From Flavobacterium sp. (GTDB taxonomy: Bacteria > Bacteroidota > Bacteroidia > Flavobacteriales > Flavobacteriaceae), in the NCBI RefSeq assembly GCF_031409475.1, contig NZ_JANNXH010000004.1, positions 7,314 through 71,313 on the forward strand: DNA of 64,000 nucleotides. Reading direction: 5' to 3'. The position numbers and the translations under genes are program-made. The notes under the pieces are model-generated. The model did no database searches and was not told the origin of the DNA. It saw only the letters and a list, made by a program, of their open reading frames with translations. Shown here piece after piece: positions 2 through 52,665 of this stretch; the first letter of the stretch is position 1, and every line of letters begins with the position of its first letter.

Positions 2-3000
2 AGCGTTTGGAGCCGAAACATACCATTGGTACGTTAAATTTATTATATCACCCGGCAAGTCGTAACCTTCTGTTCCGGCTACAGTTAAGCTTGTTGCTTT
101 ACAAGTTGGTGTGTAAGATGGATGCGTTGTAACTGTTGGTGGTGTTCCTGAAATGAAATTGTAAACACCAATATCGGAATAATCGTTATTAGCACAATCT
201 GCACTAGTTGTTCCAATATAATCAATAATATTCCAATCAGCATTAGAATAAGTTGTCGATGGAAGCGACGGGGCTGTATTTTTTCTTCTAAAAGTAGCTC
301 CATCTGTTTGTGTAGCAAACATTGGTAAAGAAGATGTAGCCCAACTAGGATCTCCAAAAGTTCCCCAGCTGTCTATTTTTGTAGCACCATTAAACAAAGC
401 GATATGGTCATTCCCTTTCGAAGGAGAAAGTTGATAAGCATCAAAATTAATTCCTAAACCAGATATAATTTGAGCTGCCAATGAACCGTTACCATAGGGA
501 GTTGTACACAAATCATCATCCCCTAAAGCCACAGTATATGTTGAACCAGCAGCTAGAGTTACATTACTTAAATTTAGTGGAGATCCAGAATAGGCACCAC
601 CATTCGAGGCTGTGTTTATAGAATAGTTACTTAAAGATTTAGAAACGCCGGTTCCGTTATAAATTTCCACATAAGTCAAACCACCATAATTTGAATCTGT
701 AACTTCGCTGATAAATAAATCAGATGCTACATTGCCACCTTCGCAGGTATTTGCCTTATTATCTATAACTGTGAAAGCATTTGTTGCTTGACAACCTGTT
801 GCAATAGTGGTAACTAAATTTCCAGACGATGCTCCGGATGGAACAAAAACTTTAATTTGTGTAGCTGACACATACGTTACAGGAGTTGCGGCAACTCCAT
901 TAAAAGTAACAGTTGCGCCTGTTAAGTTGTTTGCTGTTGCATTAATTGTTATTTCTGTTCCTACAGGTCCAGAAGTTGGAGTAATGGTGTTTGTTGTTGT
1001 AGGGCAAATTCCTGTTCCTTGAATTACAAAATCATACGTTGATTCGTCAGAATCATTATTAGCAATCGTTAAAGTTGTATTTCTTGTTCCCGAAGCACTT
1101 GGACTAAAAGTAACTGTAAAATCGATACTACTTCCACCATTTACTGTAACCGGAAAAGTAATCCCAGAAACCACAAAATCACTTGAAGCTGTTCCTCCAA
1201 TCATTGAAATTGAAGTAATTGTTAAAGAATCAGTTCCTAAATTTTCAATTCTAAAATCTTTGGCTTGTGAAGACCCAATAGTTGTTGCAGCAAATAAAGT
1301 ATTATCTGTTCCTTGAGGCGTAGTATCTCCATCAGAAATAGATGGGTTTGAACCTACAATACCTCTGACATTAATTTCTCTATCTCTTCTGCCTTTAGTA
1401 ATGTAATTTGTAGATGGCGTTGTGGTAATTCCTGTAAAAGTTAACGTATTAACTCCAGTTGCACCGCCATCAGTCCAAGTAGTTCCATTCCATTGGGTTG
1501 CAACACAATTTGTTTCTGTACCGTTCACATCCGTATTAAAATAGTCAGCCGTTACAGTATAAGTTGGAGAGGTTAAAGTTCCAGATGTAGTTAATTTCCA
1601 AGATCTAGAAATATAATCGGTGGTAGCAAATAAACTAGAATGTTGACCAGTAGATAGTGCATAATCCTCAACTGCTATACCTAAATAAGCTGATGAAAAA
1701 GTTCCTGCGGTAAAATTCACTGTTGCAGGAGAATATTCTATTGTACCTGTTTTATCTCCAACTGGGAAACGATACGTTATACCAGTTGCAGTAATATTTT
1801 TTCTTAAATTTCCGGTTGCTGTTACATCAGAAATTACAAAACTATTTGCTGAATCTCCAAAAGTATTGCTACACGTTGATGCTAGAGTCATTGTATTTGC
1901 AGCTAAATCAATCAATCCATTCGTTAATGTTAAAGCCGTATTTATTGTAACTGCAGAACCCATCGTACAGCCTACTAATATAGCCTCACGATTCATAGTA
2001 AATGTTCCTAAATTAAAATCAGTCGCAAATTTTAAAGTTCCTAAACTTCCTGTTCCATATAAAGTTAGATTTGAAGTTGTGCTTCCTTTAAAAGTTCCAT
2101 TTGTTCCTGTAACTGTATTTGTTCGCCCAGCAGTTCCTAATGTTAATGTATTTCCTGCACTTCCATTAATATCAAAAACATTAGCTGCTGTTCCAAAATC
2201 AATAGAATCTCCTCCAGCTGTTGGGGTTGTAATATTTAAACTAGTTGCTGGAGATGATGCTAATTGTACTGTAGTTGTTCCGCTTGCTGGGGTAAATAAT
2301 ATTTTATTAAATGTTGGTGTGCTCGATGCTGTTATTATTTGAGTTCCGGTTTTTGTAAAAAATATAGCCCTATTTTTTGTATCAAAAGAATAACCTGAAG
2401 TAAAAGTTATATTTCCTCCAATTTTTAAATCATCGCCATTTGCAAAACCTAAAGTCATATTCCCAGCGGAAATTAGGTTGCCAGAAACTGTCAATGCTCC
2501 AGCAGATGAAACACTACCATAATCCATATAAAATATAGAGCCAGTATCTATAGTTAAATTCCCAGCAATCCCTTTTGGTCCAGAATTTCCAGCATTTATA
2601 TAATTTAAAGTAGTAGTATTACTTATTTGAACATTTGTTGGCAATCCTATTGTTCCAACAGCTGCAATATCAGCAGTCCACTCTAACTGACGGTTGTATA
2701 TTGTATTCGAATTATATTGTAGCGTAGAACTTGCTCCGTATTTTGGAGAGTTGCCAATACAAAATCCATTTGCATTAATTTGTAGCTTTCCGTTTATAGT
2801 AACCAATGAACCCGTACCACAATTTAAACCATTTTGCAAATCGACAGTAGTAGTGTTGGTTGCCGATGTAGTCAAAGTTCCGCCGTTGGTAACGGTAATT
2901 GTGTTTGAAGTTATTGCAAATTTACCGTTTGTGGCTGAACTTGTAATAAAGCGATTTCCTCCGTTCAAATTCAGATTCCCTCCACCAGAAAGAGTAAGTG

Positions 3001-5965
3001 TTTGTCCGTTTAAATCTATTGTACTTGATGCATGAGTTGATGACAACGACAATCCAGAACTTGACGTTACATTAATAGCTGTTCCAGTTGCGGGACTTAA
3101 AGTTCCGCTTCCTGCAACTGTTAAATAATTAAAGGTTTCCAAAGTTCCTCCAGTTACTGTAACGATTTGTGAAGTACTCGTGCTTCTATTAAAAATCACC
3201 GCTCTATTATTTTGAGTAAATGAAGCTGTTGATACTCTCGTCCAGTTTCCTGCGAGATACAAATCTCCACTCGTTGCATTCAATGTTAGATTTCCGCTAC
3301 TAATATTTAAACTTCCTGCCATACCACGGTTGCTATTTGGCATTGAAAGCGTAGTGCTATTTTGAATTGTTACGTTATTAGGAACTCCAGAACCAGCAGC
3401 TGTGCTATTGCCTGTCCATTCATTAGAAACTCCGTAAGTACCCGTTGTATTGTAAATTAATGTTGATGAACCACCATAAGTTGGCGTAGCGCTTACACTA
3501 CTACCACTATTGAGCTGCAAGGTTCCATTAATAGTGGGTATGGTTGTCAAAGTAGTCGTGCCATTGATAGTTAGATTATTAAAAGTAATTGCGGTAGCGC
3601 CATTTATCGTTCCTGCTCCTGCAAAAACTACGTTACCAACAGTACTTGAAGTTACTGTTCCTGTATTAGTTAACGAACCACCTGCGTTGATGGTTAGTGT
3701 GCCTGCTGTAGTCCAAGACATCGTGCCGCTATTGTTAATGCTGCCTGTTATAAGGTTTGCATTAGAAGCTCCTGTGACAAATGAAATAGTCCCTGCATTT
3801 ACAATACTTCCAGATGTTGCTGAACCTCCTGCAGAGAATGTTAATATACCAGTACCAACCGTTGTGATAGCTCCAGTAACTGTCAATGCTCCTGATGCTC
3901 CATTAATATTCATAGTGATTCCCGTCAATATGGTCATAGTGGCAAAAGGTGTATTAGTTGTTACTGCTGCAAGTGTTTGATTGTGTGCGAGCGTAACCGT
4001 ACTGTTTGCCAGCGGCACAGAACCTCCTAACCATCTTAAAACGTTATTTATATCACCCGCACTTGAAGTTATATACCCCAAAAAGTTAAAGGATGGAACC
4101 GTTACAGACGTAACAGGAGTTGGGTTAGCCACCACAACATTTCCTGTAAAATTAATTCCTGTGTTTGCAACAACAGCAGTTAATTGAGAAGCACTAATAA
4201 AAGTAACTGTTGACGCAACACCATTAATTGTTACCGTTGAATTAGACTGAAAATTAGTACCATTAATAGTAATGGTTTGTCCTTTAAATCCTGTATTGTT
4301 AGCTTGCACTGTAACGCCAGTAACAGCAGTTGGAACTATAGAAGTAACCGTTGGTGTTAAAGAAAGTGCCGTGTAGGTATAGTTTGAACCACTGTTATCT
4401 GCATAATTTAATAAAGCATACGATTTATCTCCTTCACTAAGTGCAGTCAATGCAGCTTGGCTCATAGTTGAACTAAAAATATAATAATAAACAACAGCTC
4501 CATCTGCTTGGACAGGAATTGTAAAAGTAACTGTAGTTCCTGCAACACTACCAACTGCTGATATGGTTGAACCTCCCGTTGAAAAATCATTGGAAGCTGT
4601 TTTATACCTAACATAAAAATTTTCCTGGGATGAATTGGTAGTACTAATAGTTGCTGTTATAGTAGTAGTGCCATCGTTATTTAAAGTTCTTTGTGTACCT
4701 GTATTATGAGTCATTGTAACAGGTGCATTGGTTGTAAAGCCAGTATAATAACCCGTGCCACTGTAACCATTGTCTTTCAATATAAATGTGTAATGACCAG
4801 CTGTTCCCATATTGAATCCCATATCTGTTGAGCCATTATAAGCCGTGCCATTTATTGCATCAACTGTACCCTGACCAACTCCGCCAAATGCCCATTTGTT
4901 TGCATAAGTTCCCGTTGAGCCACAACCTCCGCCTGAAGTGAACAAAAATCCTGAACTGCCACCGCCGCTCATATTAAGCGGTGTTAGATCACCACCTGAA
5001 GCTTGAACGTTTACCGTATTTACCCATTGCCCACGTCCATCTGTTGGAGTTGATGCTGTTGTGTTTACTTTTCTGTATTTGAGTACCCGATAATCTCCAT
5101 AGGTACAATTGATAGGCTGAGAATAACTATTTATTTGACCTACAAAGTTTACTCCATCACCGCCAAAAATATTTGTACTAGGATTAGTGACAACCACATT
5201 ACCCGTTGTCGCGGAAGTTAAAGGTGCTGATGCAGCAGTTATTGTATACGTATCTGCCTGATTAAAAGCGACATTGTTAAAAGTGGCAACACCCGCAACT
5301 GCATTGGCGGAAAGTGTTCCGCTCATTGTGCCAGTTCCACTTGCTTTGGTCAGTGTAACTGTTCCTGTAAATGAAGGAACAAGCACATTCCCAGCATTTC
5401 TACCCTCGACCGTGAAACTTGATACTGGTGTTCCAGTTGTGCCTGTAGTTGGCACGCTTACTAAAGCTAATTGGGTGGGTGTATTGACAAACCCTGTCCA
5501 AGAAATATCATCGATTTTTATTTGAGCTCCAGAAGTTCTTAATTCTAAAACTATATTGCCTGAAATATTTATTGCTTGAGAATAACTTACAACTACATCC
5601 GATGTAGTTGAGACCGTTATTGTTGAACCAATTTGAACTCCATTAACCCAAACTTCAATACTTCTCGTACTTGTTCCTGTAAATGCTCTCACATAATTAA
5701 AAGTAAGTGTTCCGATACCACCAGCGTAAGTAGGAGATGTTACAGTGCCAAGACCACTTGTACAAATTGCTTTCCCAGTTAAAGTTTCATCAGTTCTTGC
5801 TAATGTTGCACTCCAAGTAACTCCATTTGTACCTGTCCAACTTCTTGTAAGATAGTTCGTCGGAGAAGCTGTTGGAATATTTAAAAAGTTTTCTGAACCC
5901 TGCCCATACGAACTTCCAAAACCCACAAACAAAGCAATCGCAATAAATAGTAATTTTATTTTCAT
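2..5965 (-). CDS. Large secreted multi-domain surface/adhesin-like protein (signal peptide, Ig-like and beta-helix-like regions, choice-of-anchor D-like, IPT/TIG and lamin-tail-like domains); 3' end outside the window, probable T9SS cargo
   Basis: ATG at 5965 (MKIKLLFIAIALFVGFGSSYGQ, Sec signal). The same minus frame is read at every point checked down to base 2 (...TYQWYVSAPNA). Motifs: FRIENLGTDSLTITSI...FTVTFSPSASGTRNTTLTIANNDSDESTYDFVIQG (~1020-1260), TPTSGPVGTEITI (~930-980), LFISEVTDSNYGGLTYVEIYNG (~650-720). Absent from the ORF track because its stop lies beyond the edge. Confidence 0.85.
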   Translation of the reverse strand, partial: MKIKLLFIAIALFVGFGSSYGQGSENFLNIPTASPTNYLTRSWTGTNGVTWSATLARTDETLTGKAICTSGLGTVTSPTYAGGIGTLTFNYVRAFTGTSTRSIEVWVNGVQIGSTITVSTTSDVVVSYSQAINISGNIVLELRTSGAQIKIDDISWTGFVNTPTQLALVSVPTTGTTGTPVSSFTVEGRNAGNVLVPSFTGTVTLTKASGTGTMSGTLSANAVAGVATFNNVAFNQADTYTITAASAPLTSATTGNVVVTNPSTNIFGGDGVNFVGQINSYSQPINCTYGDYRVLKYRKVNTTASTPTDGRGQWVNTVNVQASGGDLTPLNMSGGGSSGFLFTSGGGCGSTGTYANKWAFGGVGQGTVDAINGTAYNGSTDMGFNMGTAGHYTFILKDNGYSGTGYYTGFTTNAPVTMTHNTGTQRTLNNDGTTTITATISTTNSSQENFYVRYKTASNDFSTGGSTISAVGSVAGTTVTFTIPVQADGAVVYYYIFSSTMSQAALTALSEGDKSYALLNYADNSGSNYTYTALSLTPTVTSIVPTAVTGVTVQANNTGFKGQTITINGTNFQSNSTVTINGVASTVTFISASQLTAVVANTGINFTGNVVVANPTPVTSVTVPSFNFLGYITSSAGDINNVLRWLGGSVPLANSTVTLAHNQTLAAVTTNTPFATMTILTGITMNINGASGALTVTGAITTVGTGILTFSAGGSATSGSIVNAGTISFVTGASNANLITGSINNSGTMSWTTAGTLTINAGGSLTNTGTVTSSTVGNVVFAGAGTINGATAITFNNLTINGTTTLTTIPTINGTLQLNSGSSVSATPTYGGSSTLIYNTTGTYGVSNEWTGNSTAAGSGVPNNVTIQNSTTLSMPNSNRGMAGSLNISSGNLTLNATSGDLYLAGNWTRVSTASFTQNNRAVIFNRSTSTSQIVTVTGGTLETFNYLTVAGSGTLSPATGTAINVTSSSGLSLSSTHASSTIDLNGQTLTLSGGGNLNLNGGNRFITSSATNGKFAITSNTITVTNGGTLTTSATNTTTVDLQNGLNCGTGSLVTINGKLQINANGFCIGNSPKYGASSTLQYNSNTIYNRQLEWTADIAAVGTIGLPTNVQISNTTTLNYINAGNSGPKGIAGNLTIDTGSIFYMDYGSVSSAGALTVSGNLISAGNMTLGFANGDDLKIGGNITFTSGYSFDTKNRAIFFTKTGTQIITASSTPTFNKILFTPASGTTTVQLASSPATSLNITTPTAGGDSIDFGTAANVFDINGSAGNTLTLGTAGRTNTVTGTNGTFKGSTTSNLTLYGTGSLGTLKFATDFNLGTFTMNREAILVGCTMGSAVTINTALTLTNGLIDLAANTMTLASTCSNTFGDSANSFVISDVTATGNLRKNITATGITYRFPVGDKTGTIEYSPATVNFTAGTFSSAYLGIAVEDYALSTGQHSSLFATTDYISRSWKLTTSGTLTSPTYTVTADYFNTDVNGTETNCVATQWNGTTWTDGGATGVNTLTFTGITTTPSTNYITKGRRDREINVRGIVGSNPSISDGDTTPQGTDNTLFAATTIGSSQAKDFRIENLGTDSLTITSISMIGGTASSDFVVSGITFPVTVNGGSSIDFTVTFSPSASGTRNTTLTIANNDSDESTYDFVIQGTGICPTTTNTITPTSGPVGTEITINATANNLTGATVTFNGVAATPVTYVSATQIKVFVPSGASSGNLVTTIATGCQATNAFTVIDNKANTCEGGNVASDLFISEVTDSNYGGLTYVEIYNGTGVSKSLSNYSINTASNGGAYSGSPLNLSNVTLAAGSTYTVALGDDDLCTTPYGNGSLAAQIISGLGINFDAYQLSPSKGNDHIALFNGATKIDSWGTFGDPSWATSSLPMFATQTDGATFRRKNTAPSLPSTTYSNADWNIIDYIGTTSADCANNDYSDIGVYNFISGTPPTVTTHPSYTPTCKATSLTVAGTEGYDLPGDIINLTYQWYVSAPNA

Positions 5966-6383: not shown

Positions 6384-8420
6384 ATGAAAGTACTACAATT
6401 CCCTTTGGCGCGGATTACTATTGGGTTCATATTAGGCATTCTTCTTACGCATTATTTTCAGCCCAAACCGAATCATGTATTTGTGTTGCTTTTTGTTGCT
6501 GTTTGTGTTTTTGTAACTTCTTATTTCACTTCCAAAAAGACTTTTACAAACCCGATTTACTTTGGTTTAACCACCTATTTTCTTGCTTTTGGCATTGGCG
6601 CAAGCACGCAAATTATTCATACTCATTCTTTTCAAAAAAAAAATTATACGCATCATAAAAAAATTTATGAACAACCTCATTTGATCTCTGCAACCATTAG
6701 AGAAAAACTCCGAAGTTCATCGTATAGCGACCGTTATATTGTTTTAATAAAAAGCATTGATAGCGAAAATCGTTCGGGTAGAGTTCTTTTGAACATCAAA
6801 AAAGACAGCCTGAATCGTCCATTAACAATAGGTTCTCATGTTCAATTTTATGGTGATTTTGTTAAAAATACACCAGCAAAAAACCCCAACCAATTTGATT
6901 ACAGCAAATACCTCCGAAGCAAACAAATTTATGCACAGCTTTATGCCGATGCTAGTGAACTCAAAATAGGTTCGGGTGTTGAAAAAAACGTTTGGTATTA
7001 CACCTCGAGATTGCGAACAAGAATCATTGAGAATTTAGAAAAAAGCAATTTCAATAAAGCAGAACTCAACGTTGCCATTGCCTTAATTCTAGGGCAACAA
7101 CAGGAAATTTCGCCCGAAATTATCAAGGATTATCAATATGCTGGTGCGGTTCATATATTGTCGGTTTCGGGATTGCATATTGGATTTATCTTGCTGTTTG
7201 TAACGTTCTTGCTCCAACCTTTTCCTAACACAAAGCGTGGTTCGTTTATCAAATTGATTGTTATTCTCCTGTCGTTGTTTTCGTTTGGGTTAATAGCGGG
7301 TTTGGCACCATCTGTATTGCGCTCGGTTACGATGTTTTCGTTTGTCGCTGTTGGAATGTATTTGCGCCGAAGCACGAATATTTATCATACTTTACTAGTT
7401 TCGATGTTGCTCATTTTACTTTTTGAACCGTCGTTTTTGTTTGATGTGGGTTTCCAGTTGAGTTATGTTGCTTTGTTTTTTATTCTTTGGTTGCAACCAT
7501 TATTAGCCCAACTTTGGACGCCAAAAAATAAAATTGCGATTTATTTTTGGGACATTCTCACGGTTTCGTTTGCGGCACAAATGGGTGCTTTTCCTTTGAG
7601 TATTTATTATTTTCATCAGTTTCCGGGATTATTTTTTGTGACAAATTTAGTTATTATTCCGTTTTTGAGTTTGATCATGGCGTTGGGAGTTGTGGTCATG
7701 GTTTTGGCAGCGTTTGATTATGTTCCGCTTTTTCTCTCCAAAGCATTAGAATGGAGTATTTTTATTTTGAACAAAATCATCAATGCGATCGCCTCGTTAG
7801 AGCAATTTATCATTCGGGATATTCCGTTCAATTGGCAGTTGTTGTTGAGTGTTAATTTGGTTATTATTGCGACCATTCTTTGGTTTAAAAAACCTGGTTT
7901 CAATAGGCTTATTTTTGCTTTGGTTGCCGTAATTATTTTCCAAATTTCCTGTTTTGAAACGCATTGGAGGATACAAAACCAAAGAGAATTAGTAGTATTC
8001 AATTCAAAGAAAAATACGCTGATTGCTGAACGCATTGGCGAAAATGTGCTGTTATATGCTAATGACAGTCTTATGAAAACAGCCTGCAATAATCAATTTG
8101 TATCGGCATATTTAATGGGAAATTTTAGTCGTTTGACGGCTCGAAAAAAACTTGAAAATGTGATTTATTTTAAAGAAAATAAAATTCTGATTATAGACAG
8201 TTCTGGGGTTTATCTAAACGGAATTCATCCCGATATTGTCGTACTTACTCAGTCTCCAAAAATAAATTTAGAACGCTTTTTACAAACTGCAAAACCAAAA
8301 ATGATTGTTGCGGATGCCTCAAATTATAAAACGATTCAAAAGCTTTGGAAAGCCACTTGCTTGAAACAAAAAATCCCTTTTCACTCCACAAGTGAAAAGG
8401 GATTTTATAGATTAGATTAA
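6384..8420 (+). CDS. comEC: ComEC/Rec2 family competence protein
   Basis: Multi-TM protein with HILSVSGLHIG and PSVLRS motifs, FDVGFQLSY. ATG at 6384 preferred over the TTG at 6348. Confidence 0.9.
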   Translation: MKVLQFPLARITIGFILGILLTHYFQPKPNHVFVLLFVAVCVFVTSYFTSKKTFTNPIYFGLTTYFLAFGIGASTQIIHTHSFQKKNYTHHKKIYEQPHLISATIREKLRSSSYSDRYIVLIKSIDSENRSGRVLLNIKKDSLNRPLTIGSHVQFYGDFVKNTPAKNPNQFDYSKYLRSKQIYAQLYADASELKIGSGVEKNVWYYTSRLRTRIIENLEKSNFNKAELNVAIALILGQQQEISPEIIKDYQYAGAVHILSVSGLHIGFILLFVTFLLQPFPNTKRGSFIKLIVILLSLFSFGLIAGLAPSVLRSVTMFSFVAVGMYLRRSTNIYHTLLVSMLLILLFEPSFLFDVGFQLSYVALFFILWLQPLLAQLWTPKNKIAIYFWDILTVSFAAQMGAFPLSIYYFHQFPGLFFVTNLVIIPFLSLIMALGVVVMVLAAFDYVPLFLSKALEWSIFILNKIINAIASLEQFIIRDIPFNWQLLLSVNLVIIATILWFKKPGFNRLIFALVAVIIFQISCFETHWRIQNQRELVVFNSKKNTLIAERIGENVLLYANDSLMKTACNNQFVSAYLMGNFSRLTARKKLENVIYFKENKILIIDSSGVYLNGIHPDIVVLTQSPKINLERFLQTAKPKMIVADASNYKTIQKLWKATCLKQKIPFHSTSEKGFYRLD

Positions 8421-22026: not shown

Positions 22027-22099
22027 GGTACCTTAGCTCAGATGGTAGAGCAATGGACTGAAAATCCATGTGTCCCTGGTTCGATCCCTGGAGGTACCA
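22027..22099 (+). tRNA. tRNA-Phe (GAA)
   Basis: Acceptor GGTACCT/AGGTACC, D-arm GCTC/GAGC, anticodon stem ATGGA/TCCAT with loop CTGAAAA, GGTTCGA T-loop; CCA not encoded. Confidence 0.97.
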
Positions 22100-22410
22100 C
22101 AAAACCCACTTTTAATGAGTGGGTTTTTTTTTTCAAACATTTTTTATGGCATCCCATTCTCTTTACATTTTATATTCTAGATCTAATATAAAATATTATG
22201 TGGGCGAAACTCATAATATTGAAGAAAGAATATTAAAACACAATCAACATTTGTATTCTAATTCCTTTACAAAAATTGCTAATGATTGGGAATAAGTCTT
22301 ATTACATCATTGTGAGAATAGAACAAAAGCCCTTTTTCTTGAAAAATTTATTAAGAAAATGAAAAGCAAAGTTTTCATTCAAAAGATAATTTCAAATCCT
22401 AAAATATTAA
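22088..22410 (+). repeat. Direct repeat unit 1: tRNA 3' end + terminator + GIY-YIG gene
   Basis: ~97% identical to 23271-23592 (about 9 substitutions, 1 indel), offset 1183 bp. Confidence 0.95.
22101..22127 (+). terminator. Intrinsic terminator after tRNA-Phe (repeated at ~23284-23310)
   Basis: AAAACCCACT-tttaatg-AGTGGGTTTT followed by a T-run. Confidence 0.85.
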
Positions 22411-22439
22411 ATGAAATTATTTTAAAAAATAATATTTAA
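22146..22439 (+). pseudogene. Small GIY-YIG nuclease, inactivated by a TTA>TAA nonsense change at codon 50
   Basis: MASHSLYILYS..KYYVGETHNIEERILKHN..DWE*VLL..NEIILKNNI; stop at 22293-95 where copy 2 has TTA. Confidence 0.85.
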
Positions 22440-22457
22440 TCCATTTGACCCTAGTTC
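22438..22457 (+). repeat. Left part of a duplicated tRNA-Phe 3' half
   Basis: AATCCATTTGACCCTAGTTC vs tRNA 22063-22082 AATCCATGTGTCCCTGGTTC (17/20); the remainder CTGGAGGTACCA resumes at 23271. Confidence 0.75.
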
Positions 22458-22479
22458 TCCCGATTGCGAAGTTTCGGGA
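22458..22479. repeat. CCCGA/TCGGG palindromic repeat at the left junction of the parDE module
   Basis: TCCCGA-ttgcgaagtt-TCGGGA; GTTTCGGGA recurs at 23257-23265. Confidence 0.7.
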
Positions 22480-22567
22480 AACTTTCGAGCGAAAGAAAAT
22501 CGAAAAAACAATAGAAAATTTGTTGCAGAATACCATAAATTGGTATATTTATAAAAAATATAAAATT

Positions 22568-22813
22568 ATGGCACGAAATACATCAATTTTAATTGGAGAA
22601 TATTACGAAAATTTTATAAACAGACAAATTGCTACAGGAAAATATAATTCTGTAAGCGAAGTTGTTAGAACTGCTTTGAGATATTTTGAACAGGAAGAAA
22701 TGAAAACTAAATCTCTAATTGCAGAATTAGAACTTGGAGAAAAAAGTGAAAAAATCCGAAATTTTAACCGAACTGAAAATTTAAAACGGTTAAACGAAAA
22801 TTTCCAAAAGTAA
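22568..22813 (+). CDS. parD: ParD-family (RHH) antitoxin
   Basis: MARNTSILIGEYYENFINRQIATGKYNSVSEVVRTALR; ATG at 22568 (the track's 22445 start is an extension). Confidence 0.88.
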   Translation: MARNTSILIGEYYENFINRQIATGKYNSVSEVVRTALRYFEQEEMKTKSLIAELELGEKSEKIRNFNRTENLKRLNENFQK

Positions 22814-23112
22814 TGGCGGAATATATCATAAGTGAAAAAGCACTTGACGATTTGAATACTATTTGGATTTACACAGCGGAAAATTGGTCGCTTGAACAAG
22901 CAAACCGATATTATAATTTGATAATGGACGAAATAGAATTTGTTGCAGAAAATTTTGAAACAAGCAAAGATTTTGGAAGTATTCGAAAAGATTATCGATT
23001 TTCAAAAGTGAAATCGCATTTAATATTTTGCAAACGAGTTGAAAATACTGAAATGGAAGTAGTGAGAATTTTGCATGAAAAAATGGATATTAAAAATAGA
23101 ATTAACGATTAA
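22813..23112 (+). CDS. parE: ParE/RelE-family toxin
   Basis: YIISEKALDDLNTIWIYT..WSLEQANRY..HLIF..VVRILHEKMD; TAATG overlap with parD. Confidence 0.9.
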   Translation: MAEYIISEKALDDLNTIWIYTAENWSLEQANRYYNLIMDEIEFVAENFETSKDFGSIRKDYRFSKVKSHLIFCKRVENTEMEVVRILHEKMDIKNRIND

Positions 23113-23130
23113 AATAAAAAAAAAGTGATT

Positions 23131-23263
23131 GCACAAGAGCCACTTGGCGCAATTGCGAATTTTGTTTTAAATCCACGTTCACGTTTAGCAAGAATTTTTA
23201 TCTTTAACAGAAAATAAAAAGTTCCGAAGTTCGCAACTGACCAGAAGCGGCGGAACGTTTCGG
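23131..23263 (+). mobile_element. attC-like imperfect inverted-repeat site downstream of parE
   Basis: Degenerate R''-like GCACAAG (23131-37) and R'-like GTT (23257-59); arms GCCACTTGGCGCAATTGCGAA / TTCGCAACTGACCAGAAGCGGC; ~130 bp, starting 19 nt after the parE stop. Confidence 0.5.
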
Positions 23264-23270
23264 GACGAGA

Positions 23271-23592
23271 CTGGAGGTACCACAAAACCCACTTATTATG
23301 AGTGGATTTTTTTTTCAAACATTTTTTATGGCATCCCATTCACTTTACATTTTATATTCTAGATCTAATATAAAATATTATGTGGGCGAAACTCATAATA
23401 TTGAAGAAAGAATATTAAAACACAATCAGCATTTGTATTCTAATTCCTTTACAAAAATTGCTAATGATTGGGAATTAGTCTTATTACATCATAGTGAGGA
23501 TAGAACAAAAGCCCTTTTTCTTGAAAAATTTATTAAGAAAATGAAAAGCAAAATTTTCATTCAAAAGATAATTTCAAATCCTAAAATATTAA
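23271..23592 (+). repeat. Direct repeat unit 2: tRNA 3' end + terminator + GIY-YIG gene
   Basis: Begins CTGGAGGTACCACAAAACCCACT, identical to the tRNA-Phe 3' end and its downstream sequence. Confidence 0.95.
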
Positions 23593-23600
23593 AGGACTAA
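23328..23600 (+). CDS. Small GIY-YIG nuclease (90 aa; C-terminus 7 aa shorter than copy 1)
   Basis: YILYS..YYVGET.N.EER..HN GIY-YIG signature; ATG at 23328. Confidence 0.8.
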   Translation: MASHSLYILYSRSNIKYYVGETHNIEERILKHNQHLYSNSFTKIANDWELVLLHHSEDRTKALFLEKFIKKMKSKIFIQKIISNPKILKD

Positions 23601-48148: not shown

Positions 48149-48240
48149 CGTCTGTTCAAGTGTTTTATGTTCCGAAAAATCGGGAGTAAAACGGAACAAA
48201 AAATGCCTGTCTGCCACAGGCAGGTATCGAGAACCGTTTT
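48149..48240. repeat. Composite REP-like cluster
   Basis: CGTC..TTCAAGTG, TTCCGAAAAATCGGGA, TGTTCCG..CGGAACA, CCTGTCTGCCACAGGCAGG, GTATCGAGAACCGTTTT (inverted copy at 52530-52546). Confidence 0.65.
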
Positions 48241-49654: not shown

Positions 49655-52384
49655 ATGAAAAAAATCTACTTATTTTGCTTCTTAACATTGTCAATTTTTT
49701 CTTATGGTCAAATTTTTGGAGAGTTTGCTTCGGGTATAAGAATTAATAATACAATTTATAACACTTCTGGAATTTCTCCTAATTTAATAAATTCAGATCC
49801 TGGTGCGTTAACTTTCGATGGAGTAAGTTTAGGTGTTTATGGACAAAATTCAAGTTGTGGTGAAATTACCGCTGGTGAAATTAAAACTTTCAAAAATGCT
49901 TCGGCTAACGTATGTAGCGCAACTATAAATTGGCGTGTCTATTTAGCAAGCGGTTCTCCGTCAGGAATCTTCAATACAATTTCATTAAATACTGTAACTA
50001 ATTGTAATACAGGAACAAGTGTTTTTAATGACGGACTTGGTGCATGCGCAAATGGTGATCAAAAATGGAAAGATTACGGTTTAAATATAGATTTTGTAAA
50101 TTCTTTATTACCTGAAAATTACATTCTTGAAATTTATTATTCTTTCACAGGTTCTGATGTAAGTACTTCGACTTGTGAGACAACAAAGTATATTAGTAAT
50201 TCGGGTGCAAATTTCAAAGCGTCGTTTACAATTTCAAAACCAACAACAAGCCCATCAGCATCATCAACGTCAATCTGTGAAGGCGATAGTCTAACATTAA
50301 CTTCAAATCCTAGTGGAGGAGTTCTTCCGTATACTTTCAGTTGGACTGGACCAAATGGATATACTTCAACCGATGAAAATCCGGTAATAACTAATACAAC
50401 TATATCAAATTCAGGTACCTATTCTGTTATTGCAACTGATGCATGTGGAGTAGTTACAGTCACACAAAGTACAGCAGCAGTTTTAGTAAATCCAAAAATA
50501 GACCCTGAGTTTGATGCAACATTACCCGCAATATGTAGAAATGGTATTGCTCCTCTATTATCAACAACATCAACCAATGGTATAACAGGAACATGGAATC
50601 CTCCAATTGTGAGCAATACGACAACAACAACCTATTTATTTACACCTACAGCAGGACAATGTGCCAACACCTTGTCATTCACTATTTTTGTTGTTAATAA
50701 TGTTACTCCTGTTTTTACATTACCAAATTCAATTTGCTCAGGAGCAACTCCACCAGTTTTATCAAATATTGCTAATAATGGTATAGTAGGTTTTTGGAGT
50801 CCATCAACTGTGAGTAATACCGCTACCGGTACTTATAATTTCACCCCTAGCACTTTGCAATGTGCAACAGCATTTTCGAAAACTATAGTTGTAAATCCTT
50901 TAGTGGCTATTTTTCTCCCTGCAATTCCGCCGATTTGCTCTGGCGATGCTTTAGCTGCTTTACCGACTACTTCTACCAATGGAATTACTGGAACTTGGTC
51001 GCCTGCAGTGAATAATACCGCTACTACAACTTATACCTTTACTCCAACTTCTGGACAATGTGCTACAGCAACTGTCAATTTAACAATTGTGGTAAATCAG
51101 TTTTTAGCTACTTTTAATGCTGTTCCTGCAATATGTTCTGGTGATTCTTTAGCTGCTTTACCGACTACTTCTACCAATGGAATTACTGGAACTTGGTCGC
51201 CTGCAGTGAATAATACCGCTACTACAACCTATACCTTTACTCCAACTTCTGGACAATGTGCTACAGCATCTACAAGTTTGACTGTTGTTGTAAATCCAGT
51301 TATAACTCCAACTTTTACACCAATTGTCTCAATATGTGCTGGTACTACAAGTCCAATTTTACCCTTAACTTCAAACAATGGTTATGCGGGAACTTGGAAT
51401 CCGTCTGTAGTAAGTAATACGAATTCTGGAGTCTATGTTTTTACGCCTGATCCTGTTCCAAGCTTATGCCTTTTAACAACCTCATTGCAAATTATTGTAA
51501 ATCCATTAGTTGCAATTTTTAATCCAGTTCCTGCCATTTGTTCTGGAGATTCATTGGCAGCTCTACCGACTACTTCTACGAACGGAGTTACTGGTTCTTG
51601 GTCGCCGCCATTGAACAATACCAATACTACAACTTATATGTTTACTCCTGATGGCGGTCAATGTGCTACAACGGCTACCTTAACCATTACCGTTAATCCT
51701 AAAATTACACCAACTTTTACAGCTGTTGCATCAATTTGTTCTGGCTCAACTAGACCAGTTTTGCCTTTAATATCAAATAATTTAATAGCAGGAAGTTGGA
51801 ACCCAGCAACGGTTAGTAATACAGCTTCTGCAACCTACACTTTTACTCCTAATGTGGGCCAATGTGGCACAACTACAACATTGATTATAACTGTAAATAC
51901 ATCTCCTACTGATATTTTATTTGCCACAACAAATGTTATAAATCAAGGTCCTGATGGAATCATTGAAATTTTAAGTGTTACAAGCGGTGTGAGTCCTTAT
52001 TTATATAGTATAAACAATAGTGGGTTTACTTCAAATAAAATATTTACAAATTTATTGCCTGGAAATTATACAATAACTGTTCGAGATGTAAATGGATGTG
52101 AATTCAATAAGATTGTTACAATAGATTCTGATTGTGTATTCCCAAATGCCATTTCTCCAAACAGAGATTCATTTAATGATACTTTTGATCTTAATGGATG
52201 TAAAATTAATAAATTGGAAATTTTTAATAGATATGGAAGAAAAGTTAATAGCTACATTGATTACAAAGATCAATGGGATGGAATAAATAGCAATGGTGAA
52301 GAGTTACCTGATGGAACCTATTTTTATGTTGCAGAAATTGAAGGTGGAACGGTAAAAACAGGCTGGGTATTTATTGCTCGTTAA
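49655..52384 (+). CDS. Secreted repeat protein with type B T9SS (gliding-motility-associated) C-terminal domain
   Basis: Signal peptide, seven ~66-aa ICSG..GTWSP..YTFTP..QC repeats, SprB-like module, CTD FPNAISPNRDSFNDTF..IFNRYG..WDG..GTYFY..GWVFIAR. Confidence 0.9.
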   Translation: MKKIYLFCFLTLSIFSYGQIFGEFASGIRINNTIYNTSGISPNLINSDPGALTFDGVSLGVYGQNSSCGEITAGEIKTFKNASANVCSATINWRVYLASGSPSGIFNTISLNTVTNCNTGTSVFNDGLGACANGDQKWKDYGLNIDFVNSLLPENYILEIYYSFTGSDVSTSTCETTKYISNSGANFKASFTISKPTTSPSASSTSICEGDSLTLTSNPSGGVLPYTFSWTGPNGYTSTDENPVITNTTISNSGTYSVIATDACGVVTVTQSTAAVLVNPKIDPEFDATLPAICRNGIAPLLSTTSTNGITGTWNPPIVSNTTTTTYLFTPTAGQCANTLSFTIFVVNNVTPVFTLPNSICSGATPPVLSNIANNGIVGFWSPSTVSNTATGTYNFTPSTLQCATAFSKTIVVNPLVAIFLPAIPPICSGDALAALPTTSTNGITGTWSPAVNNTATTTYTFTPTSGQCATATVNLTIVVNQFLATFNAVPAICSGDSLAALPTTSTNGITGTWSPAVNNTATTTYTFTPTSGQCATASTSLTVVVNPVITPTFTPIVSICAGTTSPILPLTSNNGYAGTWNPSVVSNTNSGVYVFTPDPVPSLCLLTTSLQIIVNPLVAIFNPVPAICSGDSLAALPTTSTNGVTGSWSPPLNNTNTTTYMFTPDGGQCATTATLTITVNPKITPTFTAVASICSGSTRPVLPLISNNLIAGSWNPATVSNTASATYTFTPNVGQCGTTTTLIITVNTSPTDILFATTNVINQGPDGIIEILSVTSGVSPYLYSINNSGFTSNKIFTNLLPGNYTITVRDVNGCEFNKIVTIDSDCVFPNAISPNRDSFNDTFDLNGCKINKLEIFNRYGRKVNSYIDYKDQWDGINSNGEELPDGTYFYVAEIEGGTVKTGWVFIAR
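50950..51268 (+). repeat. Near-identical intragenic tandem repeats, 198-bp period
   Basis: 50950-51070 vs 51148-51268: 121 bp with one mismatch. Confidence 0.9.
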
Positions 52385-52404
52385 ATTAAAAATGACTCTT
52401 ATTT

Positions 52405-52429
52405 TAGACTGCACCTAAAATTTTAGACA
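52405..52429 (+). mobile_element. Possible solo IS3-family terminal inverted-repeat remnant
   Basis: TAGACTGCACCTAAAATTTTAGACA resembles recalled IS3-family ends (ACTGCACCCCAAAAGTTAGACA); no transposase nearby. Confidence 0.3.
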
Positions 52430-52458
52430 AATTTATAATTAATTTTGATCATAATTTT

Positions 52459-52624
52459 TCGTCTCCCGAAGTTTCGGGACGAGTGATTTTCCATAGAAAA
52501 TCGTACCGAGAATAAGGAAAATTTCATTAAAAACGGTTCTCGATACACATCACTTCGAGTTTTTTAAAATTGTAAATTTTGAAAAGTAGCGAGAAGTACT
52601 TCACAAAAAACACTCGAAGTGACG
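52459..52624. repeat. Cluster of nested CGTC-type palindromic repeats
   Basis: TCGTCTCCCGAAGTTTCGGGACGAG; CGAGTGATTTTC..AAAATCGTACCGAGAA; AAAACGGTTCTCGATAC; CATCACTTCGAGT..ACTCGAAGTGACG. Confidence 0.75.
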
Positions 52625-52665
52625 TTTTTAATAATTACACCCAACGGGTTAGATTTAAATTTTAA

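Follow-up and report, generated by a model that had tools for sequence, protein, structure and literature searches.

A tRNA-linked GIY-YIG nuclease cassette with a palindrome-split tRNA copy in Flavobacterium and other bacteria

A two-unit nuclease cassette array at a Flavobacterium tRNA-Phe gene

In a 64,000-nucleotide (nt) stretch of a Flavobacterium sp. contig (NZ_JANNXH010000004.1, forward-strand positions 7,314 to 71,313; here called the window, Flavobacterium-like DNA with a G+C content of 34%), the transfer RNA (tRNA) gene for phenylalanine is followed by a two-unit, partly decayed array of a cassette that links the 3′ end of the tRNA to the gene of a small GIY-YIG nuclease. The unit is ~383 to 394 bp long and comprises the last 12 nt of the tRNA, the host terminator, a gene coding for a GIY-YIG protein of 90 to 95 amino acids (aa), a further 8 to 20 nt of tRNA sequence, and a 16-nt palindrome, TCCCGA-N4-TCGGGA, which we term H and which stands in for the T-loop bases GATCC in tRNA-Phe units. 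The open reading frame (ORF) of the nuclease ends within the short tRNA fragment, with H right after it. The same design is found behind genes for tRNA-Phe, tRNA-Asn, tRNA-Arg, and tRNA-Met in at least three phyla (Bacteroidota, Ignavibacteriota, and Acidobacteriota). This unit architecture is well supported and apparently undescribed; full-text searches of a paper library found no description of an architecture joining a tRNA 3′ end, a GIY-YIG gene, and a palindrome. The array in the window and its related palindrome copy consist of the following features.

22027 to 22100, plus strand: tRNA-Phe (GAA) gene, judged functional, on whose 3′ part the array is anchored (ARAGORN; Rfam tRNA, 66.6 bits)
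22088 to 22411, plus strand: direct repeat copy A, with CTGGAGGTACCA, the terminator, and most of GIY-YIG copy 1 (blastn, 96.9% identity over 324 nt)
22101 to 22133, plus strand: intrinsic terminator of the tRNA, with an 11-bp stem and a T-run (terminator scan)
22146 to 22439, plus strand: GIY-YIG copy 1, a pseudogene whose final stop overlaps the tRNA fragment (translation; tblastn, 93% identity to copy 2)
22438 to 22457, plus strand: partial tRNA copy AATCCATTTGACCCTAGTTC, from the anticodon loop to the T-loop GTTC (17/20 matches to 22063 to 22082)
22458 to 22479, plus strand: left part of a doubled H, with the outer arm TCCCGA and a decayed inner H, TTGCGAAGTTTCGGGA, in place of the T-loop GATCC
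22480 to 23265, plus strand: secondary insertion bearing parDE, 786 nt, including the second GTTTCGGGA (23257 to 23265)
22568 to 22813, plus strand: parD antitoxin gene (PF03693, 1.5e-20; TIGR02606, 2.3e-18)
22813 to 23112, plus strand: parE toxin gene (PF05016, 7.2e-13)
23266 to 23270, plus strand: outer right arm of the doubled H, CGAGA, where L004 has CGGGA (comparison with L004 and L010)
23271 to 23593, plus strand: direct repeat copy B, with the tRNA 3′ end, a weakened terminator, and GIY-YIG copy 2
23328 to 23600, plus strand: GIY-YIG copy 2, intact, 90 aa, YhbQ/SLX1 clade (PF01541, 2.3e-12)
52460 to 52483, no strand assigned: free H copy, TCCCGAAGTTTCGGGA at 52464 to 52479, flanked by CGTC and CGAG

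The two copies of the direct repeat (324 and 323 nt, at a spacing of 1,183/1,182 nt with an indel of a single T) both open with CTGGAGGTACCA, the 3′ end of the tRNA. An in-frame TAA at 22293 to 22295 marks GIY-YIG copy 1 as a pseudogene. The partial tRNA copy overlaps the TAA that ends this pseudogene, halts after GTTC, and is picked up again at 23271, with the palindrome TCCCGATTGCGAAGTTTCGGGA occupying the break; the pattern TCCCGA-N(2-14)-TCGGGA occurs twice in the window and never in 100 shuffles of it. The 9-nt repeat GTTTCGGGA is found at 22471 and 23257, 786 nt apart, and excision of 22480 to 23265 in silico restores GAAGTTTCGGGACGAG, which is identical to 52468 to 52483 in the free H copy. 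The palindrome thus restored reads TCCCGA-TTGCGAAGTTTCGGGA-CGAGA, a decayed version of the 27-nt doubled form TCCCGATCCCGAAGCTTCGGGACGGGA (TCCCGA-TCCCGAAGCTTCGGGA-CGGGA) that occupies the same place in L004 and L010. The C terminus of the copy 2 protein is ~5 residues short of the family consensus, and downstream of the gene, the tRNA fragment, palindrome, and terminator with which the arrays of relatives close are missing. A search of the region against Rfam matched the tRNA alone.

A sequence-only reading of the window had described the direct repeats, the second tRNA 3′ half broken after GTTC, the palindrome at the break, and the parDE segment interrupting it, and each of these was recovered as claimed, whereas the interpretation built on them is supported in part. 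The duplication might trivially result from a collapsed or misjoined repeat in the assembly. The general risk posed by repeats is the one point in favor of such an artifact, but the copies differ at 10 positions (3%) plus the indel as well as in their flanks, the stop codon is present in just one of them, and the same arrays, of one to three units, recur in many independent assemblies, leaving it a negligible probability.

The T-stem of the window tRNA-Phe (22075 to 22093) sets CCTGG against CCTGG, giving a U51-U63 mismatch that is seen in all of the Flavobacteriaceae loci examined. Directly 3′ of the array in the window is a gene for a major facilitator superfamily (MFS) transporter. The distance from tRNA-Phe to the MFS gene ranges from 0.1 to 4 kb (L008, L010, L019, L036, and L184), and because of this variation the 3′ flank of tRNA-Phe is a variable hot spot irrespective of the cassette.

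Distribution of the unit across tRNA genes and lineages

Homologues of the 90-aa window protein were sought in species-representative genomes, which yielded 36 loci (loci are cited here by L numbers). A tRNA gene is located just upstream on the same strand in 32 of them. The majority (29/36) are tRNA-Phe loci with a conserved upstream synteny of CoaX and an outer-membrane protein gene, from Flavobacterium, Aequorivita, Tenacibaculum, Ascidiimonas, and Aurantibacter; the remaining tRNA-linked loci, one of each kind, involve tRNA-Phe in Prolixibacteraceae, tRNA-Arg(CCT) in Ignavibacteriaceae, and tRNA-Asn. Of the four exceptions, two have a tRNA truncated by the end of the contig, and in the other two an integrase island or an IS21 insertion sequence intervenes between tRNA and array. 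Further scans by alignment of genomes, metagenomes, and viral contigs, which used the single peptide pattern EKFIKKM, mostly retrieved the known loci again from genomes and metagenomes and nothing from viral contigs.

About 30 species of Flavobacteriaceae carry the unit, inclusive of H, in arrays of one to three, with two units in L002, L003, L006, L020, L031, L035, and L116 and three units at a period of 394 nt in L004. Loci with a single gene also have the complete tail, i.e., GTGTCCCTGGTTC, the 16-nt palindrome, and then CTGGAGGTACCA and the terminator 3′ of the gene. The terminator duplicated with each unit is of the host lineage's own type (L001, L004, L006, and L191). Because H occupies the same place in ~30 other species and is found in doubled form in L004 and L010, it is an ancestral part of the unit rather than a later layer. 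The nesting of three layers envisaged in the sequence-only reading is consequently reduced to two; parDE remains as a secondary insertion in the palindrome, whereas the proposed splitting of an earlier repeat by the palindrome does not hold for this lineage.

Outside the tRNA-Phe group, the details of the unit vary with the tRNA. In the tRNA-Asn clade, which has a conserved PfkB synteny and spans Marinilabiliales, Chitinophagales, and Weeksellaceae, the stop codon of the nuclease is the TAG inside the D-arm fragment GGTTAGAGC, and the anticodon stem has its 5′ strand supplanted by H or by one of two variants of it, TCCCGCACGTGCGGGA and TCCCGATGAAGCATCGGGA. The variant TCCCGCACGTGCGGGA seen at this position also adjoins dispersed copies of H. 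In the tRNA-Arg unit of Ignavibacteriaceae, the TAA of the anticodon loop serves as the stop codon and is followed by H. Pseudo-tRNA copies in Carboxylicivirga (L336) bear H in both the anticodon arm and the T-loop, in the latter directly after GGTTC, and an Acidobacteria locus combines tRNA-Met, the nuclease gene, and a doubled H in the T-loop. In L033, L034, and L035, extra short units made up of the tRNA 5′ part and H precede the real tRNA. Palindromes other than H also occupy pseudo-tRNA copies (L093; L339, positions 1780 to 1800; L077; and L117), as exemplified by TCCGCCGGCCCGCGGA in the anticodon region of a tRNA-Met duplicate (L093, positions 500 to 575 and 860 to 935).

In two loci, integrase-bearing islands lie between tRNA-Phe and the nuclease array (L016, positions 381 to 1895, and L116, positions 1927 to 3228), and an IS21 element is found there in a third (L030, positions 3 to 1872). 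The displaced tRNA end begins exactly at CTGGAGGTACCA, with GGTA directly before it in L116. On the basis of this exact start, tRNA-Phe is also a live attB, with a crossover near the T-loop. We had considered the arrays of L016, L030, and L116 as ectopic transpositions but rejected this in view of the integrase island or IS21 element between array and tRNA.

These islands raise the question of whether the cassette is itself the decayed product of an integrase, comparable to the remnants known as cis-mobilizable elements (CIMEs), with the tRNA 3′ repeats as old att sites, H as a later insertion that disabled the distal att site, and a tyrosine integrase acting in cis or in trans. Like CIMEs and other tRNA-integrating elements, the cassette displays direct repeats of the tRNA 3′ half, the classic signature of integration, can accumulate in tandem at a single tRNA, and leaves the functional tRNA intact. 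Integrases acting on tRNA genes use T-loop and anticodon-arm sublocations, and H is found in both; the attR sites of the L016 and L116 islands, which start exactly at CTGGAGGTACCA, also suit this explanation. However, no integrase was found within or beside the units in ~40 loci, in line with the integrase-free unit posited in the sequence-only reading, and integrases are confined to the separate islands of L016 and L116. Moreover, the repeat extends past the tRNA through the terminator of the host lineage, unlike integrase cores; a conserved palindrome sits in the crossover loop; and nuclease-only units of ~390 bp under purifying selection across a family are unexpected for decaying remnants. 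We therefore regard an integrase origin as quite unlikely.

Empty and occupied sites

In an independent sample anchored on CoaX, 22 of 23 Flavobacterium tRNA-Phe loci are empty, with no nuclease gene, tRNA fragment, or H. Occupied and empty alleles are collinear from the first base 3′ of the last repeat (L191 versus L190, at 88% identity, and L001 and L005 versus L188) and the ~385 bp by which they differ hold the nuclease gene, the tRNA fragment, and H, together with a duplicate of the tRNA end and the terminator that goes with it. The occupied allele retains all of the sequence of the empty one, including the whole tRNA, the terminator, and the downstream junction, and only its distal duplicate differs in having H for GATCC. 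Relatives have alleles of zero, one, two, and three units with exact boundaries, and the association of small GIY-YIG genes with tRNA 3′ ends is borne out by the 32 tRNA-linked loci of the homologue survey.

The presence or absence of the cassette between conserved flanks recalls a free-standing homing endonuclease gene, but the other hallmarks of such genes, i.e., a site altered by the insertion, an extra DNA-binding domain, and homologues in phages, were not found. Since the empty-allele sequence is fully retained, there is no site destroyed by insertion, and classical homing is a poor fit. The empty sites could be explained by loss through recombination between the repeats.

A bare GIY-YIG domain of the YhbQ/SLX1 clade

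The window nuclease is recognized by the Pfam GIY-YIG profile (PF01541, 2.3e-12), and its catalytic residues Y7, Y18, R28, H32, and E66 are conserved. Along with N33, they show no variation across 13 diverse members of its subfamily, and H32 and E66 are again invariant in 21. Profile matches to structures in the PDB rank 1zg2 (9.6e-8), 1ywl (1.2e-5), and SLX1 (1.9e-5) well ahead of I-TevI (0.04); the closest solved structures are accordingly the UPF0213 proteins BH0048 and EF2693, then SLX1, with I-TevI and UvrC after them. An AlphaFold 2 model (mean predicted local distance difference test score, 86.8) has the succession E-E-H-E-H-H, consistent with the GIY-YIG α/β fold of a three-stranded sheet and helices, and a Foldseek search with this model returned UPF0213, Slx1, I-TevI, and UvrC in the same order as the profile search. 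Sequence profiles and the predicted structure thus both place the nuclease nearer to UPF0213/SLX1 than to I-TevI or UvrC, with the best profile and fold matches being 1zg2, 1ywl, 4xlg, and 7cq3. The protein consists of the catalytic domain and two short helices, with no additional DNA-binding domain, and differs from YhbQ and SLX1 in possessing a subfamily-specific motif, EKFIKKMKS. SLX1 cuts branched and hairpin-like DNA, requires SLX4, and has a RING domain. To our knowledge, the YhbQ/UPF0213 and SLX1 proteins are host repair or uncharacterized proteins with no reported tRNA linkage, and we know of no role assigned to the widespread bare GIY-YIG proteins of the YhbQ/UPF0213 type.

Comparisons of orthologue pairs gave dN/dS ratios of 0.09 to 0.32, indicative of purifying selection, and the ORF is intact at ~84% of the loci. 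A tblastn search of 50,697 phage records with the nuclease found no match, and none was found in plasmids or in viral contigs, the latter scanned with the EKFIKKM pattern.

The palindrome H and its dispersal

Among 26 T-loop copies of H, stem positions 2 to 6 and 11 to 15 are nearly invariant, and the outer pair is T:A in 18, C:G in 8, and mixed in none, i.e., a single covarying pair. The loop is conserved asymmetrically as AGCN, with A at position 7 in 88% of the copies and T at its partner, position 10, in 50%. This asymmetry points to a strand-specific, single-stranded role rather than a symmetric duplex site. One such role would be in RNA: the tail of the unit (tRNA fragment, H hairpin, tRNA 3′ end, and terminator) might be transcribed and bound by the nuclease as an autoregulator or a guide, comparable to the transposon-end RNAs of TnpB and IscB. 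The conserved and covarying stem, the asymmetric loop, flanks that match the local tRNA whatever its isotype, and the extension of the ORF into the element would all suit such an RNA. Nevertheless, just one pair covaries, no RNA-guided relative of the 90-aa GIY-YIG domain is known, the guide would match the functional tRNA gene of the cell itself and leave self-targeting unexplained, and dispersed copies of H lie at a great distance from genes of this kind. Hence, we judge an RNA device to be very unlikely.

Within 300 nt of nuclease genes, the density of H is 1.33/kb, against 0.0115/kb elsewhere in the same loci, an enrichment of ~115-fold. Away from the gene, Flavobacteriaceae loci have a background of 8 to 11.5 copies per Mb, versus ~0.01 per Mb expected by chance (arithmetic from 34% G+C). 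A scan for the pattern retrieved mostly Bacteroidota loci, the majority of them far from a tRNA or nuclease gene; matches in viral contigs were not distinguishable from chance. H often caps a longer hairpin specific to its locus or is nested in another H. In L002, L003, L008, L010, and L012, only the distal copy of the terminator carries H, which there takes the place of AAATA in the loop.

A hairpin-rich intergenic element common to several genomes (window 52380 to 52660; L127, positions 1255 to 1470; and also L003, L067, and L099) offers a further comparison. H is present at different positions in the homologous elements, between CGTC and CGAG in the window (52420 to 52640) and in the loop of a GATTTTC/GAAAATC hairpin in L127. 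The CGTC 5′ of the free window copy, which shares 16 nt (52468 to 52483) with the restored H at the tRNA locus, is present without H at the corresponding place in L127, and most dispersed copies have no such tag. Taken together, three comparisons of orthologous sequences (T-loop, terminator loop, and intergenic element) show that H inserts independently and often into hairpin loops. The possibility that the H loop is retained target sequence, raised by AGTT at the empty site of L127, was rejected, as the T-loop and terminator insertions keep no target bases. The degenerate palindromes TTCCGAAAAATCGGGA, TACTGAAGTCTCGGGA, and TCCCGAAACTTAGGGA at window positions 48170, 48733, and 53678 resemble H, which suggests several decayed copies within these 64 kb. 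In a Roizmanbacteria metagenome-assembled genome (MAG), the H pattern falls inside intact, ARAGORN-called tRNA-Ser and tRNA-Leu genes (L095, positions 1342 to 1431 and 3235 to 3324), where it probably coincides with the long variable arm.

In being a short, GC-rich, dispersed, and overrepresented palindrome that clusters around a single conserved and vertically inherited enzyme gene, H resembles the repetitive extragenic palindromes (REPs) and their RAYT transposases. REPs of the CGTC type occur in Bacteroidetes, and their dedicated enzyme is not known (PMC3733652). H differs from REPs in its length of just 16 nt and in apparently having no consistent GTAG or CGTC tag, and the gene beside it codes for a GIY-YIG hydrolase where REPs would have a Y1/HUH transposase. 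We know of no REP system tied to partial tRNA duplications. A RAYT-like Y1 transposase was considered as the mover of H and set aside for lack of a general association: among 341 loci (2.6 Mb), Y1_Tnp is found only in L336 and L181, in neither case flanked by H, and the L181 homologue is unrelated to H. The L336 gene, an IS200-like Y1 transposase (2642 to 3202, minus strand; PF01797, 1.3e-6) ~190 nt past the H-rich nuclease array, is a possible alternative mover of H. It is conceivable, if doubtful, that H is a miniature mobile element with the 95-aa GIY-YIG nuclease as its dedicated enzyme, a partnership like that of REP and RAYT but based on a different nuclease superfamily. Such an element would attack the loops of DNA hairpins, chiefly those of the T-arm and the anticodon arm in tRNA genes, and the survivors of these attacks would bear partial tRNA duplications as scars. 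In a variant of this idea, the nuclease would be directed by the H hairpin and its tRNA-matching flanks, which would serve it as a cofactor in the form of RNA or single-stranded DNA.

The parDE insertion

The gene pair that interrupts the palindrome in the window is predicted to code for a ParDE type II toxin-antitoxin system, as the genes are adjacent, overlap (TAATG at 22811 to 22815, which combines the parD stop with the parE start), and match both families above threshold. ParE homologues of 80 to 91% identity are present in many Flavobacterium genomes, but the exact ParE sequence was not found in any other record. The DNA from 22469/22480 to ~23120 matches, at 88 to 89% identity, parDE cassettes that other Flavobacterium genomes carry at unrelated sites; the cassette is mobile. 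The left limit of this homology is the junction at H, and the 120 nt before the right junction are without a match. With the target's own GTTTCGGGA at both junctions, the simplest reading is that a target duplication of 9 bp accompanied the entry of parDE into H; no convincing terminal inverted repeats were seen in the insert. The view that such palindromes may serve as landing pads draws on two cases, this insertion and a 20-nt insert flanked by CGAAGT inside H in L033. The further proposal of the sequence-only reading, that the toxin-antitoxin pair would hold the array in place, is speculative.

The highly conserved parDE copies (89% DNA identity) at unrelated sites recall integron cassettes, as do the arrays of single-gene cassettes in Flavobacterium franklandianum and a Flavobacterium MAG (L211, positions 1900 to 3900; L212; and L210, positions 700 to 3300), in which parDE is accompanied by a GyrI-like/Cass2 gene and a hydrolase gene. 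The spacers between these cassettes are mosaic repeats of ~330 nt, each L211 repeat containing a perfect TCCCGAAGCTTCGGGA as well as a TAnnTTTG motif, read by eye, that might be a promoter. The presence of H in these spacers hints that it takes part in cassette exchange. An attC-like fold of the 3′ region of parDE was tried and rejected: 23105 to 23275 folds into several small hairpins (z = -1.2), and the L211 spacer forms three separate hairpins. The 5.3 kb available around the arrays showed no integron integrase, and the inter-cassette repeats contain H.

Proposed mechanism and alternatives

The closest precedent for the array is SegB, a GIY-YIG protein of T-even phages that colocalizes with tRNA genes and whose breaks, through homologous recombination, lead to tandem amplification of a tRNA-plus-segB unit (PMC13096335). 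The two systems are alike in that a GIY-YIG gene is found beside tRNA genes of many isotypes, tRNA sequence and nuclease gene form tandem units, and the unit junction is at the 3′ end of the nuclease ORF. SegB arrays, amplified by double-strand breaks and homologous recombination, are unstable. SegB is a phage protein whose C terminus tolerates a truncation of 28 aa, and it is hence much longer than 90 aa; the window nuclease, in contrast, is chromosomal, is a bare domain of 90 to 95 aa from the YhbQ/SLX1 clade, and is associated with H and with a partial rather than a full tRNA copy.

We lean toward a SegB-like explanation, in which the cassette array is driven by a hairpin-cutting nuclease and recombination and was, in the window, later modified by the parDE insertion, the death of one nuclease gene, and a distal deletion. 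The nuclease would be structure specific and would nick or cut DNA hairpins formed by H, by the T-arm and anticodon arm of the tRNA, and by terminator loops. The resulting breaks would be repaired through homologous recombination between the flanking tRNA 3′ end and terminator repeats, with units being gained via unequal sister exchange and a unit being lost via single-strand annealing to leave a perfect empty site. When DNA is exchanged between relatives, the long flanks could bring the cassette into empty tRNA sites. Partial tRNA copies bearing H would persist only where the tRNA is redundant, which would account for the consistent absence of H from the functional copy. In the window, a mobile parDE would have entered H with a 9-bp duplication, after which the nuclease gene of unit 1 was inactivated and a deletion removed the distal part of the array.

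Several observations weigh against this mechanism. The cleavage of hairpin DNA by the nuclease is predicted only from its clade membership. A sequence-specific nuclease could not discriminate between the alleles, since the occupied one retains all of the sequence of the empty one. The pairwise identity of the nucleases tracks that of the adjacent CoaX (r = 0.81), and because of this codivergence, frequent horizontal jumping is not shown; the pattern fits vertical descent with frequent loss, which requires no transfer, and equally fits spread among relatives with coconversion of the flanks. H has a comparable background density in genomes that are empty at tRNA-Phe (2 copies in 249 kb). H-split duplicates of tRNA 3′ parts without a nuclease gene are present in L088, L091, and L093, and on this account H may be moved by something else. 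Lastly, a Babeliales homologue is located beside tRNA-Met without H.

Much of this would also be expected if there were no selfish element at all, but instead a host repair nuclease gene after tRNA-Phe that underwent local tandem duplication, an unrelated REP-like palindrome that was moved by some other enzyme and entered the redundant T-arm, and a later insertion of parDE. Codivergence with CoaX and strong purifying selection suit a resident gene; H is dispersed genome-wide, inclusive of genomes with an empty site; it splits tRNA duplicates that have no nuclease gene; and the layout of the window, with two genes, two repeats, and no trailing fragment, is what a simple duplication would produce. 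On the other hand, this account would not predict that the tripartite design recurs with four tRNA isotypes and in three or more phyla, the ending of the ORF inside a tRNA fragment just before H in three tRNA contexts, or the 115-fold enrichment of H around the gene. A duplication of gene plus tRNA would also not yield the single-gene loci that keep the distal tRNA fragment, H, and terminator, and the gene is missing, with exact boundaries, in most close relatives. We consider this alternative unlikely.

The present observations delineate one subfamily of YhbQ-type proteins with a fixed genomic behavior: in several phyla, its genes have a tRNA gene on one side and, on the other, a copy of the 3′ part of that tRNA that is split by a palindrome. 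Irrespective of mechanism, these units generate pseudo-tRNA fragments, tandem repeats, and insertion hot spots beside single-copy tRNA genes, which is of relevance to the annotation and assembly of Bacteroidota genomes. If the nuclease drives the dynamics of the array, cells would possess an equivalent of the "accordion" that SegB forms in phages, and tRNA loci could be occupied by minimal means and with no integrase. If the nuclease also moves the palindrome, it would define a new enzyme class for miniature palindromic repeats, and should H have the nuclease as its enzyme or serve as its cofactor, the family would provide a candidate enzyme for palindromic repeats that are now without one.

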